64,000 nucleotides of DNA from positions 64,098-128,097 of the forward strand of contig JBAZEY010000001.1 of NCBI GenBank assembly GCA_041653675.1, written 5' to 3'. The stretch comes from Patescibacteria group bacterium. Lineage in GTDB: Bacteria; Patescibacteriota; Patescibacteriia; XYB2-FULL-38-15. Below, piece by piece: positions 4,578 through 64,000 of the stretch. The notes below the pieces were generated by a model. It was not told the origin of the DNA and searched no databases. It worked only from the letters and a program-made list of their open reading frames with translations. The translations under genes and the position numbers were made by a program. Each line of letters starts with the position of its first letter. Positions within the stretch are counted from its first letter, which is position 1.

Positions 4578-5246
4578 ATGAAGCTTAATGTTTTATACGA
4601 AGATAATCATTTAATCGTGGTAGAAAAACCAGCGGGAATGCTTGTGCAAGGAGATAAAACTGGCGACCCTTGTTTAATGGATGAAGTGAAGAAATATTTG
4701 AAAGAAAAATATAAAAAGCCAGGCAATGTTTTTTTGGGATTAGTTCATCGGTTGGATCGTCCGGTTGGCGGGGTCGTGCTTTTCGCGAAAACAAGCAAAG
4801 GCGCGTCAAGACTTTCGGCGCAATTTCGCGAACGAGCGGTGGAAAAATATTATTACGCGGTTGTTCTCGGAAAAATGAAAGAGGTGAATGGCACGATTGT
4901 AAGTTTTTTAAAAAAAGACGAAAATAAAAATATAGTAGAAGTTTTTGATCGTGAAGTTGTGGGCGCCAAACAGGCGGAACTTTTTTGGGAGGTAGAAAAA
5001 GCGGGCGCGAAAAATACTTTGTTAAAAATAAAATTAGGAACGGGCCGGGCGCACCAAATCCGGGCGCAGCTCGCTTCAGTCGGCTATCCGGTTTTAGGCG
5101 ACGTAAAATATGGCGCGGATGAGCCCTTGCCTGATAAATCAATTGCTCTTTTTTCTGCTTCACTTACTTTTCTCTCGGCCACCGGCGGCAAATCAGAAAC
5201 AATTGAATTGCCTTGGCCAAAAGTTTGGGAAAAATATTTAAATTAA
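4578..5246 (+). CDS. RluA-family pseudouridine synthase
   Basis: HRLDRPVGGVVLFAKT motif (catalytic Asp in HRLD) and KYYYAVV. Start placed at ATG 4578 (MKLNVLYEDNHLIVVEKPAGM) rather than the overlapping upstream ATG 4518. Confidence 0.75.
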   Translation: MKLNVLYEDNHLIVVEKPAGMLVQGDKTGDPCLMDEVKKYLKEKYKKPGNVFLGLVHRLDRPVGGVVLFAKTSKGASRLSAQFRERAVEKYYYAVVLGKMKEVNGTIVSFLKKDENKNIVEVFDREVVGAKQAELFWEVEKAGAKNTLLKIKLGTGRAHQIRAQLASVGYPVLGDVKYGADEPLPDKSIALFSASLTFLSATGGKSETIELPWPKVWEKYLN

Positions 5247-5310
5247 TCCGGCTTCGCGAAAAAGAGTTTTTCCGACCGGTTTTTTGATTAAAAATTTAAC
5301 ATTACGAAGT

Positions 5311-5664
5311 ATGGCAAATCTCCAAGAAGTTTGGCTACGGATGCAAAAAACAAAAAAGAAACAAAAAGAAATCAGGTCGGCGTATAAAGATGCGCTCGTG
5401 AATAGCGCTGATTACGGAAAAATCGTGGAAGATTTAAAAACTCTTCGCGAAAAAAAGAAAAAAATTGAAACGGATGTGCGGGGAGATTTTACTTCCGAAT
5501 TTAATGAATTGGAAACCCTAAAAGCGGACACGGAAACTGACGCGGAAATGCTTTCAGATCTCGCCTTAAATACTTTTGTGAAAGGCGAGACAGTTCAGGT
5601 GACTGATGAATACGAAAATAAATACGAACCGGTTTTTGTCGTGAAATTTAAACGGGTGTACTAA
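5311..5664 (+). CDS. hypothetical protein (charged, coiled-coil-like)
   Basis: ORF with native codon usage. No recognisable motif. Confidence 0.35.
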   Translation: MANLQEVWLRMQKTKKKQKEIRSAYKDALVNSADYGKIVEDLKTLREKKKKIETDVRGDFTSEFNELETLKADTETDAEMLSDLALNTFVKGETVQVTDEYENKYEPVFVVKFKRVY

Positions 5665-17705: not shown

Positions 17706-18092
17706 ATGGGGGAATTACAAAACAATCATTTTAATCTAGAAGAGCGGACAGCACAATTTGGCATAGCGATAATAAGGTTCAGTAAAACATTGAGTCAAGA
17801 TGCTGTTTCAAGGCCACTTATAAATCAGTTGGTGAGATCGGGGACTAGCGTCGGTGCGAATTATATGGAAGCCAACGGTGCCAGCTCCAGAAAAGATTTT
17901 CAGAATAAAATTTATATTTGCAAAAAAGAAGTTCAAGAAACAAAACATTGGTTGAGAATGATCGCGGAGTGTTGCCCCAGCTGTAGAGAACGGGCAAGAA
18001 TTTTATGGGCCGAAGCACAAGAGCTGACTCTAATTTTTGGAAAAATAGTTTCTACTTTAAATAGCAAAAAAAGGGACGAACAGATTTTATAA
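17706..18092 (+). CDS. four-helix-bundle protein (23S rRNA intervening-sequence protein family)
   Basis: GTSVGANYMEANGASSRKDFQNKIYICKKEVQETKHWLRMI matches the conserved core of that family. Confidence 0.7.
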   Translation: MGELQNNHFNLEERTAQFGIAIIRFSKTLSQDAVSRPLINQLVRSGTSVGANYMEANGASSRKDFQNKIYICKKEVQETKHWLRMIAECCPSCRERARILWAEAQELTLIFGKIVSTLNSKKRDEQIL

Positions 18093-18139
18093 ATTTAATA
18101 ATTTAGTCATTCATTAAAAATTCAGAATTAAAAATTTTA

Positions 18140-19030
18140 AATTAAAATAAAGAGAGGTCCGTCCGCAAATTGGATTTAGAGTCCAAGTCGCAGGCAGACC
18201 TCAATGGGTGGGATAGAAGAGTCTCAAGAGTCGAGACTCGGGCGGGACGAACTAGTACAGGTCGTCGGCCGGGTCCTCGAGCTGTCCACCGGTGTGGAGC
18301 AGCCGGAGGTGGTCGTCGTCGCAGGCCAAGGCGATCGCGCGATCGCGGTCGCGGGTCTGGCGCCAGACGCCGTCGGGATCCCTCACGAGATCGGCGGGAT
18401 CGTCTTCTCCGTCGTCGCCACGCTGGTCGGGCGACAGCAGTTCGCGCAGTTCTTCGGACAGTTCGCCGCGGTTCAAATCGCACTCCGCGAAACGTCGGCA
18501 AGCCATTCTACCCACTCCTCCTTCCCAACTCCGCTCGGATGAGCGAAGTGATGACCTCCTCCTGATAGTCATCCAGTTGTTTAGAAATTTTTCCAAGCAA
18601 CTGGATAATTGTCAGGAATTTCCGCCTCTTCGGTGGATTTATTTTTTTAAAAAAGTAGGGGCAGAAGAGTTTTTACGCTCCTCTGCCCCATCGTGTTCAA
18701 TGCGCGCCCCGCGCTGCAGTTTCGGGGTAGGGCATTCGCGTTTCCTCCCTGCCGTTTGGATGTGGGTGCCTGCCACCAAACATTGTGTGGTCCAGAATAC
18801 ACACCCTGGGTTAGTTGGCCATCGGCGCTCGCCGGGCGGTGGGGGCGAACATCGAAATGTCGCCTGTCGCGTAATCGGTTAGAGCAGCCTTGGCCCAGCT
18901 CAGAACAGCCTCATCGCCGGCGTCGTCGTGCCGGCACGCGCTTCGGGGAATCCCGCTTTTGCCAGATGGCAGAGCGGTTAGCTCGGTCCTAAGCCGGTTA
19001 AGGCCGTGACAGAGCTTCCCCACGTTCGGT
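18140..19030. other. GC-rich (~62%) island lacking a credible long ORF
   Basis: Six-frame ORFs overlap on both strands in the Arg-rich-junk pattern of GC-rich noncoding DNA. Bounded by AT-rich intergenic sequence. Confidence 0.5.
18252..18505 (-). CDS. small acidic protein (84 aa), very high GC3, perfect SD (GGAGGAG-N7-ATG)
   Basis: MACRRFAECDLNRGELSEELRELL... About 85% G/C at third positions. SD and ATG read from the sequence. A 7-bp hairpin GAGTCTC...GAGACTC follows the stop. Confidence 0.4.
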
Positions 19031-19168
19031 GGTTTTACTTTATCATATTTTTATAATTTTGTCAAGGGTTATTGACAAAATAAGCAAAAAGCCCCAGTTT
19101 TATAGGGCTTTTCTTTATTCCGTATTTATGTTATGATATGTGAATAATTAATAAAAATTAGTAATATT

Positions 19169-60254: not shown

Positions 60255-60283
60255 TTGACAAATTCGTTATCATGGTTTATAAA
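60255..60283 (+). promoter_or_regulatory. sigma70 promoter TTGACA-17-TATAAA driving a noncoding GC-rich transcript
   Basis: Read from the sequence. Follows the murF terminator AGCGGGCC...GGCTCGCTTTTT. Confidence 0.5.
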
Positions 60284-60290
60284 TAGAGAG

Positions 60291-60446
60291 CCGCTGACAG
60301 ACCCGTGGGCGGCATGCCGGCCCGAAAGGCTCGGCGACGGAGGTTTGTTCGATGTACAAGTCAACGTCTGTCGCACAGAGATCGCGCTCTATGCGGCTAC
60401 ATGGGTCACTGGCTCTCGATCGAAACGACCGAGAGCCACTTTTTAT
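60291..60446 (+). ncRNA. candidate small RNA (~155 nt, GC-rich, own promoter and terminator; family unidentified)
   Basis: Long-range helix AGCCGC-U-GACAGAC / GTCTGTC...GCGGCT. GNRA hairpin GCCGGCCC-GAAA-GGCTCGGC. Terminator TGGCTCTCG...CGAGAGCCACTTTTT. No plausible ORF. Confidence 0.35.
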
Positions 60447-60523: not shown

Positions 60524-60598
60524 GGCCTCATCGTCTAGCCTGATCTAGGACGCCTCCCTCTCACGGAGGAAACTCGGGTTTAAATCCCGATGGGGCTA
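60524..60598 (+). tRNA. tRNA-Glu (anticodon CTC)
   Basis: Acceptor GGCCTCA/TGGGGCT (two G-U). D-arm GTCT...GGAC. Anticodon loop CTCTCAC. T-arm TCGGGTTTAAATCCCGA. CCA encoded. Confidence 0.75.
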
Positions 60599-60798
60599 CC
60601 AAAATAAATTAGAAATTAAATACAAACTAGCAAAAAGAAATTACCGCGAATTTATTGCGAAGGATTTAAACCAGGGAAGGGTCGGAAACCGCTAGGTTTC
60701 CGTTCGCGGAAATATTAAAACCGCAGGGTTTTAAGGAGCGAAGCGACGTTTAATTTCCCGATGGGGCTACCAAAAATAAATTAGGAATTAAATAAAAT
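60578..60798 (+). repeat. ~46-nt direct repeat of the tRNA-Glu 3' end plus 25 nt of downstream flank (TTTAAATCCCGATGGGGCTACCAAAATAAATTAGAAATTAAATA; second copy 60753-60798) flanking a ~130-bp hairpin-rich spacer
   Basis: Near-identical copies read from the sequence (3 differences). Confidence 0.6.
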
Positions 60799-61519: not shown

Positions 61520-62233
61520 ATGTTTCATCAAGTTTGGCATGATGTTCTATACACCCCTCTTTTGAATGTTTTGATTTGGCTTTATAATGTTCCGGCTTTT
61601 GGAAATTTGGGCGTAGCGATTATTTATTTAACAATCATTATTCGCGTTGTTCTTTTGCCTTTTACGGTTGTTTCCGAACGCAGCAAAATTTTATACGAAA
61701 GATTGGGGCAAAAGATAGACAGAATCGGGCAAGATTTTAAAAACGATCCGATTCAGAAAAAAGAAATGATTCGCAAGGTCATGCGCGAACATCGAGTGAG
61801 CCCTTGGGCAAAAGTTATGGTTTTAGGCGTTCAGGCTTTAACCTTGGTTCTTTTGTACCAAGTTTTCATTGGCGGAATTAATGGCAAGCTCGGCGACCTA
61901 TATTCTTGGGTGACTCATCCAGATTTTATTAATACGGATTTTTTGGGATTTGACTTGGGAGAGGTGAGAAATTTATTTTGGAGTGGGCTGGTCGGCGCGG
62001 TTTTATTTTTAGAAATTTTTATTGACTACCGCGGCAAGTCAACCGGACTCACTAAATCCGAAGTGGCTTACATGATCTTTTTCCCCGCTGCCGTTTTTCT
62101 GACGCTCTGGATTTTGCCGATAGCTAAATCAATTTTTATTTTAACTTCAATTTGTTTTTCTTTTATTGTAATTTTCTTTAGGCAGATATTTAAAAAGAGA
62201 TTTGAAGCGGCGCCCGCAGAGTCAAAGAAATAA
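61520..62233 (+). CDS. yidC: YidC/Oxa1-family membrane protein insertase (short form)
   Basis: Conserved core GNLGVAIIYLTIIIRVVLLPFTV...KILYERLGQKIDRIGQDFKNDPIQKKEMIRKVMREHRVSPW. Confidence 0.7.
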   Translation: MFHQVWHDVLYTPLLNVLIWLYNVPAFGNLGVAIIYLTIIIRVVLLPFTVVSERSKILYERLGQKIDRIGQDFKNDPIQKKEMIRKVMREHRVSPWAKVMVLGVQALTLVLLYQVFIGGINGKLGDLYSWVTHPDFINTDFLGFDLGEVRNLFWSGLVGAVLFLEIFIDYRGKSTGLTKSEVAYMIFFPAAVFLTLWILPIAKSIFILTSICFSFIVIFFRQIFKKRFEAAPAESKK

Positions 62234-62254
62234 AGATATAAAAATAAATTTTTG

Positions 62255-62281
62255 AAACCGGCCATAAAGCCGGTTTTTTTA
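62255..62281 (+). terminator. rho-independent terminator (ACCGGC-CATAAA-GCCGGT + TTTTTTT)
   Basis: Read from the sequence. Confidence 0.65.
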
Positions 62282-62347
62282 AATCCCTTGACTCGCTATC
62301 GCTCGCTCAGAAAATAATTATGTCCTGAGTCTGTCGAAGGCCGGGGA

Positions 62348-62376
62348 TTGACAAAATTTTCATTCCATGATATAAA
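62348..62376 (+). promoter_or_regulatory. sigma70 promoter TTGACA-17-TATAAA upstream of the GC-rich noncoding unit
   Basis: Read from the sequence. Confidence 0.5.
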
Positions 62377-62384
62377 GATATGTG

Positions 62385-63566
62385 CGGGCAAACTTTCGTA
62401 AATTCAATCCGGGAGGATTAAGACACCGGTAGGTGATTGCCTCTCCAACAGGCCCGCCTTGAAAGATACGAGCTACCGCTCGTTGGAAATATGACGCGGC
62501 AGATAACTGCCGTAAGCCGCTGTAGCGCAATACGGGTATGCGTTTCGGAGCAATACCCTGAAGTTGTGGAGGTTCAAATCCTCCCTAGCGGCTCTACGAA
62601 GGTTGGCGGCCGGCGGAAGATCTCAGCCGGGTACGTCAGCAGCGGCCAGCGCGCTTGGCGCGTGTGGCTTAAAAAAAAGCCCAGTGGCTAAGTCCAAGGG
62701 GACTAGAATTGGGAAGTGTGCTCTCCCGAGCCACAGGGGAGAGCGCCAAAGCTTCCGCGAGCCGAGCTCGCGTTGGCAATAAGTTGCGGTCGGTCTGAAA
62801 GCGCGAATACGAGCGTGGTGTCGGGTTTCCCCCGATGGCTCTGGGCGCTTGCCGGCCGCGACCTGCGCTGTTCCAAAGCGGCTGCCAGAATGCGGTCGTT
62901 GAACGCTCGCCGCCAGAATGCGGTGGGCGGAATGGCGCAGATCTTTGCTCCCCGTGGTTGCCTGGATGGTGGTCTGGGCATGGGGCATTAAGGTTTCCCG
63001 ACGCCACTTGGGAAATCAGGAGGAACCCTGCTCGTCGTTATCCGCCTTAGGCGGACTGCGGCGGGTATAAAAATCTCGCGGGTGCCATCACACACTGCGA
63101 GATGGGGGCGGCACAATCGGACTCGGTGGGGTGGATCCTCCTGAGGAGGAGTTCCAGCCGAGATCGGTTCCGGGCCAAGGGAGGCCTGCTGTGTCGCTTT
63201 CTCTTAATCACGACCCATCGGGTTTGTCGGGCTTGCTCGGCAGCACGGTGGGTTGGGGCCCGGCGGTTGTCCAGGTGGTTCTGGGCAGGGCTTTAAAGGA
63301 CGCTCTCCGCCGCTATAAGAGAGGTCTAGGCGTTCCTGTCGTTCCGCAAGGGGCGAATCCCGATACTGAAACCACACCAGTAAAGGGACATCAGGAAGCG
63401 ACATAATCATGTTCCCCTCCCTGAGGAACACATGATTCCGGGCTATTTCCCGCCGTGGTATGCCTGCGATGTCGCAGTTTGCTCAGTACTTCCAAGTGCG
63501 GAATCCCGCGCGAGGAAGTCGCGATACTGCGCCGTGATGATTCATTCGTCACGGCGCCCTTTTTTA
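62385..63566 (+). ncRNA. candidate large structured RNA (~1.2 kb, ~58-60% GC, promoter-to-terminator, no credible ORF; family unidentified)
   Basis: Arg-rich junk ORFs in all six frames. Dense local hairpins. Embedded tRNA-like element. Ends at strong terminator GCGCCGTGA...TCACGGCGCCCTTTTTT (63529-63566). Confidence 0.3.
62515..62591 (+). pseudogene. tRNA-like element (acceptor, D-arm and canonical T-arm GGAGG-TTCAAAT-CCTCC present; anticodon arm degenerate)
   Basis: Hand fold gives 7-bp acceptor GCCGCTG/TAGCGGC, U8, A14, D-stem GCGC/GCGT, T-loop TTCAAAT. No 5-bp anticodon stem/7-nt loop. One extra base between T-stem and acceptor. Confidence 0.3.
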
Positions 63567-63579
63567 TCGATGACCTTGA

Positions 63580-63703
63580 CCCCGTAGTAGAATTTCGGAA
63601 TGTGAAACGGCGTTATGCAAACAAGCTTTGTGACAATTTAAAATTTTTTTAAAACAAATTATTTTTTCCGGCTTTGACGGAAATCCGAAATTTCACTACG
63701 GGG
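63580..63703. mobile_element. MITE-like element copy 2 (~124 bp; TIR CCCCGTAGTAGAATTTCGGA / TCCGAAATTTCACTACGGGG; flanking direct repeat TTGA(C))
   Basis: Same TIR family as 55153-55290, including the same asymmetric AG/GA positions. Internal sequence differs. Confidence 0.45.
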
Positions 63704-63777: not shown

Positions 63778-64000
63778 ATGGCTGATTCTTTAGACAAAAT
63801 AATGTATTCGTTTGTCGTGGAAGACGTCTTAAAGGGCTTTTTTATCACTGTTCCGCCGGGTTATGTTGCCTGCGTTTACGACCTTGGCAGGGGAGTCCTG
63901 AAAAAAGTTTTGCATCCCGGTTTGCATTTAAAAATTCCATTTTGGCAGAGAGCAAAATTGTTTAATACTCAAACTTTGGAATACAATATCAGCAAGGATT
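63778..64000 (+). CDS. SPFH/band-7 (stomatin/prohibitin-like) domain protein, 3' end outside window
   Basis: N-terminal FFITVPPGYVACVYDLGRGVLKKVLHPGLHLKIPFWQ resembles SPFH-domain proteins. Confidence 0.5.
   Translation, partial: MADSLDKIMYSFVVEDVLKGFFITVPPGYVACVYDLGRGVLKKVLHPGLHLKIPFWQRAKLFNTQTLEYNISKD

Follow-up and report, generated by a model that had tools for sequence, protein, structure and literature searches.

A candidate large, modular non-coding RNA with a tRNA-like module at the yidC-Band_7 locus of a narrow Patescibacteria clade

We analysed a 64,000-nt stretch of a Patescibacteria genome (contig JBAZEY010000001.1), referred to here as the window, and within it a GC-rich unit at 62348-63566 on the + strand, between yidC (61520-62233) and a Band_7/SPFH gene (band7; start at 63778). 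The unit appears to be a gene in its own right, specifying a stable non-coding RNA (ncRNA) of ~1,186 nt with extensive structure. An initial annotation, made from the sequence of the window, had described a discrete structured non-coding unit running from promoter to terminator, and promoter, terminator, folding and conservation all support that description. We consider it very probable that the unit is a functional structured ncRNA gene. The region was found at 100% identity in two independent assemblies. For comparison, ~150 syntenic loci (labelled in the style L001-L166) were fetched from GTDB genomes and JGI metagenomes via YidC alignment, together with further contigs.

A predicted structured non-coding transcription unit

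The promoter of the unit is predicted to be strong and of the sigma-70 type, with an extended -10 element. As read from the sequence (62348-62376, + strand), it consists of a -35 element TTGACA at 62348-62353, a 17-nt spacer and a -10 element TATAAA at 62371-62376. These elements had been recognized in the initial annotation; a TG at 62368-62369, which extends the -10 element, can be added. Transcription would start near 62383. A scan for consensus promoters demanded T as the last base of the -10 element, and hence passed over TATAAA at 62371-62376. A stricter extended -10 pattern occurs at three sites in the 64 kb, the best of which is the promoter of the unit. Of the 18 large inserts checked at homologous loci, 17 retain the layout TTGACAnAATTTT..TGnTATAAAG.

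An intrinsic terminator was identified at 63529-63566 (+ strand), with a 12-bp stem at 63529-63557 (8 G-C pairs), a 5-nt loop and then CCUUUUUU. The T-run after the stem is CCTTTTTT, ending at 63566. The hairpin and T-run had been predicted at this place, with a stem of 9 pairs, which needs correction. Terminator-like sites near the unit are not rarer than chance (5 found vs 3.8 expected), and this terminator is taken as real because it is conserved among homologues, in two alternative hairpin versions. The version found in the window is conserved in L003, L005, L083, L088, L089 and L150; in its place L004, L006, L084, L085, L149, L159 and L165 have a longer alternative hairpin with a T-run. 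Retention of promoter and terminator by homologues had been proposed as a check on the unit, and both are kept, the terminator as a hairpin and T-run of either type.

The GC content of 62350-63550 is 0.52-0.63, compared with a window mean of 0.42, which bears out the GC-rich island first noted there. The stretch had also been described as lacking a coding frame, and we reached the same conclusion. No open reading frame (ORF) of the unit exceeds 121 aa in any frame, the longest (121 aa) is on the opposite strand, and the 10 longest ORFs have no Pfam matches. There is no codon periodicity: in an alignment of the C domain (described below) the variable columns are spread evenly across the three codon positions (22/22/22), the length of 20 out of 23 pairwise indel runs is not divisible by 3, and frames are shifted within conserved blocks. 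Between invariant blocks, hairpins differ in length by 1-2 nt. No protein in a database of 5.8 billion clusters has words in common with the longest open frame that is conserved.

Folding of the full-length unit gives a minimum free energy (MFE) of -570.7 kcal/mol for the + strand vs -470 for the - strand. Relative to shuffled sequences, the fold z score for 62594-63200 is -6.33 (+) vs -2.85 (-), and that for 63195-63566 is -5.09 (+). Alignments of homologues show helices that are almost fully paired and include compensatory changes: the D hairpin (98.6% of cells paired, 4 of 12 pairs compensatory, 12 sequences), the B hairpin (100%, 2 of 7 pairs), the closing helix of module E (97.2%, 4 of 12 pairs, 6 homologues), the tRNA-like cloverleaf (92.5%, 10 of 21 pairs) and the C domain (98.3%, 5 of 68 pairs). 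When the registers are slid by 1-3 columns only 14-65% of cells are paired, and the true register is far higher for all five modules. Six pairs of the C domain are G.U in all sequences and would be A.C on the opposite strand; the transcript is thus assigned to the + strand.

A search of the whole window against Rfam 15 at gathering thresholds gave no match inside the unit. At E<=10 on 62200-63700 the sole notable match is a sub-threshold tRNA (27.4 bits), and at E<=0.5 on 15 loci from relatives only tRNA was found, plus sub-threshold YrlA and mascRNA matches. The suggestion that the unit matches no known family and may be a new RNA class is therefore upheld by the Rfam 15 search. RNase P, transfer-messenger RNA (tmRNA), signal recognition particle RNA, 6S RNA, group I and II introns, GOLLD, ROOL, OLE and HEARO were rejected, as none has an Rfam covariance-model match; for RNase P RNA, neither the bacterial type A nor the type B model matches the window or the relatives.

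A phage or plasmid origin was rejected as well. Comparison of the unit by blastn with 50,697 phage records and 72,556 plasmids found no similarity, and two pattern scans of IMG/VR found no homologue. There are 112 IMG/VR matches to a 16-nt pattern from module D, and these are attributed to chance because nhmmer found nothing in them. We also rejected a multi-copy mobile element: comparison of all inserts with the 64-kb window and all flanks detected only small repeats resembling miniature inverted-repeat transposable elements (MITEs) or repetitive extragenic palindromic (REP) sequences, and promoter similarity. No further copies of the unit were identified within the window or in any flank. 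A tandem array (CRISPR, TIGR or ToxI-like) was rejected, as there are only two copies of a 16-nt near-repeat, which form the twin hairpins of junction E. Literature searches for described large ncRNAs in Candidate Phyla Radiation (CPR)/Patescibacteria bacteria returned nothing relevant.

Module anatomy and the tRNA-like element

The order of the modules is fixed: leader hairpins, a tRNA-like cloverleaf, the B hairpin, the E junction, the C domain or domains, the D hairpin and the terminator. All are on the + strand. The 5' leader (62384-62513; MFE fold z = -2.33) is predicted to form three hairpins, at 62384-62458, at 62468-62483 (ACGAGC..GCUCGU) and at 62496-62513 (GCGGCAG-AUAA-CUGCCGU). The last stops 2 nt before the acceptor stem of the tRNA-like module. 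The CGAGC/GCUCG and GCGGCAG/CUGCCGU hairpins, with the 2-nt spacing, are also present in L003, L007, L088 and L089.

The tRNA-like cloverleaf occupies 62516-62593 and includes an acceptor stem, a D arm, a canonical T arm GGAGGUUCAAAUCCUCC and a 9-nt anticodon loop. The initial annotation had noticed this module. Its score with the Rfam tRNA model (RF00005) is 27.4 bits vs a gathering cutoff of 29, and Aragorn detects it only with a relaxed threshold. The window copy is the most degraded of the tRNA-like modules, with UCUA after the acceptor stem. Homologues do keep the module, which was a further check proposed at the outset, and their copies score 38.2-62.3 bits. Conserved across the modules are the acceptor stem, the D arm, an AGGUCG variable loop and the T arm GGAGGUUCAAAUCCUCC; the anticodon arm is not conserved. 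It ends in a tetraloop in L089 and L165, and in a 6-nt loop in L159 and L003b; in L083, L149 and L006 it carries an insertion of ~25-80 nt. Canonical anticodon loops are present only in L005 (CUC) and L003a (UCA). The L005 module directly follows the promoter and resembles a canonical tRNA-Glu(CUC) (62 bits). CCA is encoded in the L089 module only; the real tRNA-Glu of the genome encodes CCA. With its 9-nt loop and UCUA end, the window module falls short of a functional decoder, which would have a 7-nt loop with U33 and a purine at 37, and a 3' CCA or CCA-ready end. From these features, we read the module as a tRNA mimic that would keep the L-shaped elbow and not decode.

A 13-mer shared by L083 and L003, GGAUUAGAUACCC, is the only rRNA match that stands out. 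It is identical to E. coli 16S 785-797 (the 790 loop), and occurs at gap positions 323-335 of L083, in the anticodon insertion of the tRNA-like module, and at gap positions 1058-1070 of L003, in a C-junction hairpin. It is displayed as a 9-nt loop AUUAGAUAC on a 4-bp stem. The motif is not in the window RNA. The match may be due to chance or to one shared module, because sharing of rRNA k-mers is not above that of shuffled controls.

Between the tRNA-like module and module B is a variable domain (62600-62748), which is supported by an inverted repeat (I6) and is closed in the MFE fold. Within it, GGCGGAAGAUCUCAGCC (62612-62628) shows complementarity to the CUUCCGC of module B. The domain has weak matches in L089 and L006 only. 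Module B (62749-62793) centres on a 7-bp hairpin, AAGCUUCCGCGAG-loop-CUCGCGUUGGCAnnAAGUUGCGGUCGG, within a block of invariant sequence. Few parts of the RNA are as widely shared (up to 8 homologues match it), and its consensus AAGCUUCCGCGAG..CUCGCGUUGGCAnnAAGUUGCG is present in 9 inserts. Module E (62862-62940) is a predicted three-way junction closed by CCUGCGCUGUUCC / GGAAUGGCGCAG, with the consensus CCUGCRCUGUUCC .. GGAAYRGYGCAG. It encloses twin hairpins (62879-62898 and 62908-62929), with a CAGAAU loop in each. These are the two copies of the near-repeat GCYGCCAGAATGCGGT (62881-62896 and 62909-62924) that the initial annotation had noticed.

Domain C1 (62951-63201, ~250 nt) has a consensus fold with 68 pairs. 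It comprises a hairpin GCCUGGA..UCUGGGC, an invariant unpaired UCAGGAGGAACCC (63016-63028), GUAUAAAAAUC (63065-63075) and a three-way junction formed by GCGGCACAAUCGG (63108-63120), a variable hairpin and GGUUCCGGGCC..GGCCUGCUGUGUCGC (63166-63197). C1 is 74-85% identical in L085, L156, L150 and L007; there is also a match in L159, and L004 has a partial match. Across inserts, the invariant blocks of the C domain are UCAGGAGGAACCCUGC, GACUGCGGCGRGUAUAAAAAUCUCG and GGGGGCGGCACAAUC, and the junction ends in GGUUCCGGGCC..GGCCUGCUGUGUCGC. Domain C2 (63202-63478) appears to be a diverged tandem copy of C1, with direct repeats D5 and D13. It has a start GUCCAGGUGGUUCUGGGC (63269-63286) and a junction GCGACAUAAUCAUG (63398-63411) .. 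GAUUCCGGGC..GCCUGCGAUGUCGC (63434-63475). The order of the motifs points to duplication of C1, and nhmmer with a C1 profile gave weak C2 matches at 63265-63314 and 63433-63477. Module D (63488-63527) is a two-tier hairpin, ACUUCC-AA-GUGCGG-loop-CCGCGC-GA-GGAAGU, followed by a conserved tail CGCGAUAC. It is the most widely shared part (up to 10 homologues), with the consensus ACUUCCAAGUGCGG..CCGCGCGAGGAAGU, then CGCGAUAC.

Distribution, mosaic variation and neighbouring elements

Adjacency of yidC and band7 holds in Magasanikbacteria, Falkowbacteria and related Patescibacteria. Downstream of band7, on the same strand as the unit, are hrcA, grpE, hsp20 and dnaK, and murF is among the neighbours. 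In ~130 more distant yidC-band7 loci the gaps are almost all ~2-290 bp. Large GC-rich inserts exist in ~17 distinct versions (743-2008 bp, GC 0.50-0.58), all with the same module order. They are carried only by the closest clade (YidC identity >=77%, plus L149), which is narrow and Falkowbacteria-like, and are absent from the next relatives out (YidC 70-71%). The genomes of the clade have 42-49% GC, and the high GC of the insert is kept in every member. Within the clade, the insert is missing from L087, L163 and L164 (from three samples, YidC 85%), whose gap measures 161 bp. The RNA gene is therefore considered dispensable, because one lineage inside the clade has none. The homologues, collected by synteny, were found at the yidC-Band_7 site only. 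From this distribution we conclude that the element originated in, or entered, a narrow lineage on a single occasion. The corresponding site in L008 (YidC 74%) holds an insert of another kind: the yidC-band7 gap (4655-5390, 736 bp) is AT-rich (GC 0.33), has its own TTGACA promoter and shows no similarity to the GC-rich RNA.

Apart from near-identical pairs, pairs of inserts share 0-58% of their length. In L083, the closest relative, yidC and band7 are 93% identical at the nucleotide level and the RNA can be aligned over 80 of 1186 nt (module D and the terminator). L150 (yidC 84% nucleotide identity) shares 453 nt of the window RNA and L007 (yidC 73%) shares 291 nt. From these alignments, the set of modules appears to turn over by gain, loss, duplication and exchange much more quickly than the neighbouring genes accumulate differences. 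As sharing is independent of the flanks and there are no extra copies, whole domains or alleles seem to be exchanged by recombination. This probably occurs between conserved anchors, namely the promoter, module D with the terminator, and the flanking genes.

Two small elements flank the unit. A 124-bp MITE-like element at 63580-63703, with 20-nt terminal inverted repeats CCCCGTAGTAGAATTTCGGA / TCCGAAATTTCACTACGGGG, has its insertion point precisely at TTGAC in the promoter of band7, with a duplicate of TTGAC on either side. L007 has a related element at this position, and the element is absent in L004, L005, L083 and L087. Between the yidC terminator and the promoter of the RNA is a palindromic REP-like element CTCGCTATCGCTCGCTCAGAAAATAATTATGTCCTGAGTCTGTCGAAGG (62292-62340), a version of which is present in L004. 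Copies akin to the L004 version, in the opposite orientation, were identified in L088 (7956-8013) and L155 (7367-7424).

Other GC-rich features were identified elsewhere in the window. A second GC-rich (0.60), ORF-free unit of ~385 nt (18649-19065, - strand; fold z = -2.99) has a promoter in the style of that described above, TTGACAAAATT..TGATAAAGT at 19065-19037 (-), and a hairpin with T-run at 18689-18649 (-). It has no Rfam match at E<=10, and may be another unclassified ncRNA. Near it are a gene for a 23S_rRNA_IVP four-helix-bundle protein (17706-18092; Pfam E = 3.5e-15) and, after that gene, a stretch with GC up to 0.71 (18132-18610). The only plausible ORF in this stretch (18252-18596, - strand, 114 aa) has no Pfam match; the stretch could be foreign DNA or encode a novel small protein. 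The third extended -10 match in the window, TTGACAAATCTTTAATACCGTGTTAAATT at 20361-20333 (-), is followed by a GC-rich start, AGAAUCAGCAAUGGGGCGGGAUGCCCUCGUCCC. Between murF and a tRNA-Glu gene is a GC-rich unit of ~160 nt (60255-60444, + strand), with promoter TTGACAAATTCGTTATCATGGTTTATAAAT (60255-60284) and a terminator at 60411-60444. No credible Rfam family was identified for this unit; the terminator hairpin alone matches Actino-pnp (24.5 bits), on the opposite strand. The 3' end of the tRNA-Glu(CUC), CCCGATGGGGCTACCAAAA, with AT-rich bases (60586-60604), is repeated ~170 bp downstream (60757-60775). These repeats look like attL/attR remnants of a small tRNA-integrated element.

Proposed action, rival explanations and known systems

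We think it fairly likely that the unit specifies a clade-restricted, modular ncRNA that acts in trans as a scaffold with a tRNA handle. The RNA would work as a folded scaffold, and be neither a message nor a leader. The 3' core (C junction, D hairpin and terminator) probably stabilizes the 3' end and carries the main functional surface, and the L-shape of the tRNA-like module would serve as a handle for tRNA-binding machinery. Two modes of use can be envisaged. In the first, RNase P and RNase Z would cleave the transcript to give a leader, a tRNA mimic of ~77 nt and a remaining 3' portion of ~970 nt; in the second, the elbow would stay in the RNA and act as a docking module. Docking is favoured over cleavage because a conserved hairpin lies just 2 nt ahead of the acceptor stem.

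The claim for any specific partner is graded well below that for a functional ncRNA. The invariant unpaired UCAGGAGGAACCC (AGGAGG) and the tRNA mimic suggest a partner in the translation apparatus. Pull-downs of GOLLD, another large ncRNA, were reported to recover ribosome-related partners (PMC12286853). A more speculative idea, to which we assign a low probability, is that the RNA is a hypervariable mimic of the translation machinery used in genetic conflict, as a decoy, sponge or cage for a phage- or toxin-encoded factor able to recognize tRNA elbows, Shine-Dalgarno sequences or rRNA loops. Under this idea the RNA may, like GOLLD and ROOL, also assemble with itself into a multimeric particle made only of RNA. 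A role in conflict would explain the combination of the tRNA mimic with the invariant exposed AGGAGG, the 790-loop motif in two relatives, and the domain swaps despite flanks that are 93% identical.

Several observations weigh against the proposal of a functional scaffold. The transcript, its ends and any processing of it are predicted from sequence, and the idea of a translation-apparatus partner is founded on short motifs. Exact matches of >=11 nt to E. coli 16S/23S rRNA are not enriched relative to shuffled controls. The tRNA-like module of the window is degraded, given its score below the Rfam cutoff, its 9-nt anticodon loop and its lack of CCA. About 230 nt of C2 (63205-63433) have no match in any homologue searched. 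The alignments used for covariation are shallow (6-12 sequences from a single clade), and the shuffle controls are not probabilities; sequences from close relatives can beat such controls even when unstructured. We take the compensatory changes as good evidence, though not as statistically rigorous. The homologues were collected through yidC-band7 synteny, and their true distribution may be wider. Finally, presence in a narrow clade, dispensability and very fast turnover also fit weakly constrained or selfish DNA.

A first rival explanation is that an ancestral tRNA gene between yidC and band7 was a hotspot for integration or recombination, and that the unit is functionless, decaying foreign DNA with tRNA pseudogenes, incidentally transcribed from the promoter of the old tRNA gene. 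We consider this improbable. It would account for the tRNA-like modules near the 5' end (including the canonical-looking copy directly after the L005 promoter), the mosaic content and presence/absence differences among close relatives, the loss in one lineage, the small MITE/REP-like repeats in and around the locus, and a GC content far above that of the host genome. Yet neutral decay runs counter to the retention of high GC in every member of the clade, and compensatory changes preserve helices B, C, D and E and the cloverleaf. Long single-stranded blocks such as UCAGGAGGAACCC and GUAUAAAAAUC are invariant, and a promoter and terminator bracket the unit. Nor were ORF remnants, Pfam matches, phage or plasmid similarity, or copies in the flanks or window detected. 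The proximity of the heat-shock genes raises another alternative, a giant cis-acting leader or attenuator that senses temperature, a tRNA-related factor or a ligand and gates read-through of its terminator into band7-hrcA-grpE-hsp20-dnaK. The unit is directly upstream of these genes, on the same strand, and near the terminator CGCGA-GGAAG-UCGCG can pair instead of hairpin D, an alternative that, on our reading of the alignments, covaries in L149 and L088. However, the strong terminator is followed by a separate band7 promoter, which is identical in relatives without the insert (L087), and in the window the 124-bp MITE-like element parts the two. Most Patescibacteria keep yidC-band7 with a short gap (20-150 bp), and the length of ~1.2 kb is far beyond known leader sizes; we know of no leader that approaches it. 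A cis-acting role is thus rated as very unlikely.

Two further explanations are, in our view, extremely unlikely. The leading candidate of the initial annotation was a group I or II intron lacking an ORF, or the remnant of one, beginning with GUGCG. The RNA is large, GC-rich and structured, and GTGCG is indeed near the predicted 5' end, at 62382-62386 (one base from the position first given); but this motif (GUGYG) is absent in homologues, whose 5' ends read GAAAGUAC.., no domain V-like hairpin was identified, and there was no Rfam group I/II match in the window (E<=10) or at the 15 loci from relatives (E<=0.5). The unit lies between genes, has a promoter and a terminator of its own and interrupts no host gene or exons, so this candidate was abandoned. 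The other explanation is a protein-coding gene or pseudogene from a high-GC donor. The GC content of the unit (58-62%) is well above that of the genome (42%), and gene callers put short ORFs within some homologues. Against this stand the absence of an open frame or Pfam match (the longest ORF being on the opposite strand), the even distribution of substitutions over codon positions, the frame-shifting indels in conserved blocks, and a conserved frame that shares words with no protein in the database searched.

We return to a trans-acting structured RNA for comparison with known systems. To our knowledge, few bacterial ncRNAs longer than ~500 nt have been described (rRNAs, group II introns, GOLLD, ROOL, OLE and HEARO), and almost nothing is known about ncRNAs of CPR/Patescibacteria. 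The inserts constitute a new family among the large, ornate ncRNAs of bacteria, unusual for the embedded tRNA mimic, the domain mosaicism and the CPR host.

The closest resemblance is to GOLLD (an Rfam family; Weinberg 2009; cryo-electron microscopy in PMC12286853). Its 5' region is variable and its 3' region conserved, and tRNAs are in some cases located in its linker or adjacent to the RNA (PMC12286853). Like GOLLD, the RNA is very large (>800 nt), GC-rich and multi-junction, with a variable 5' part, an embedded tRNA-like unit and a conserved 3' part. This is an analogy of layout, and not a claim of common descent. Unlike GOLLD, the unit has no covariance-model match at the thresholds tried, is located among housekeeping genes of the chromosome and outside any prophage or tRNA island, usually embeds a tRNA mimic without an anticodon loop in place of a working tRNA, and is confined to one narrow Patescibacteria clade. 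ROOL is also a large ornate ncRNA, often near tRNAs and non-essential, with a mean length of 581 nt and a fairly uniform architecture (PMC5737381). RNAs of the family studied here are ~0.55-1.7 kb long, with modules present or absent, and have no match to the ROOL model. Membership of a GOLLD/ROOL-like class, which the initial annotation had considered, fails because there is neither a model match nor a phage (prophage) context.

Other RNAs share the tRNA-like element. In MALAT1 and MEN-beta, RNA ends are defined by RNase P and RNase Z, which are recruited by a eukaryotic tRNA-like element, mascRNA. It too is a non-decoding cloverleaf within a long non-coding transcript, and L150 has a weak match to its model (25.9 bits, far under the cutoff of 42.5). 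However, mascRNA is eukaryotic and at the 3' end, whereas the element of the unit is near the 5' end. YrlA RNAs are roughly 100-200 nt long, with a closed acceptor end and an anticodon end that opens into a Ro-binding stem. By this layout the unit is reversed, with an open acceptor end and a closed anticodon end. YrlA is a bacterial ncRNA with a tRNA-mimicking domain consisting of a T arm, a D arm and an acceptor-like stem (PMC4201824). Weak YrlA model matches overlap or abut the modules in L165 (25.9 bits) and L159 (24.6 bits), where the cutoff is 69, and there are none in the window. No rsr/Ro60 (TROVE) gene was identified in the sampled flanks of L001 and L150-L166. In tmRNA a tRNA-like domain is joined to a long structured insert, and L006, L007 and L088 resemble it in having, on our reading, ~80-215 nt between the acceptor/D side and the T-arm side. 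The differences are that Aragorn detects no tmRNA at its default threshold, there is no Rfam tmRNA match, and G3.U70, a tag reading frame and (except in L089) CCA are lacking.

Large bacterial ncRNAs have each opened new RNA biochemistry, and GOLLD and ROOL were recently found to form RNA-only nanocages. If our interpretation is correct, the unit adds a CPR class of large ncRNA, which at ~1.2 kb exceeds typical GOLLD and ROOL RNAs. The natural series of domain swaps, together with the lineage that serves as a knockout, would provide a comparative system for learning which domains matter. The same series would bear on the reasons for the frequent association of large ornate RNAs with tRNAs.

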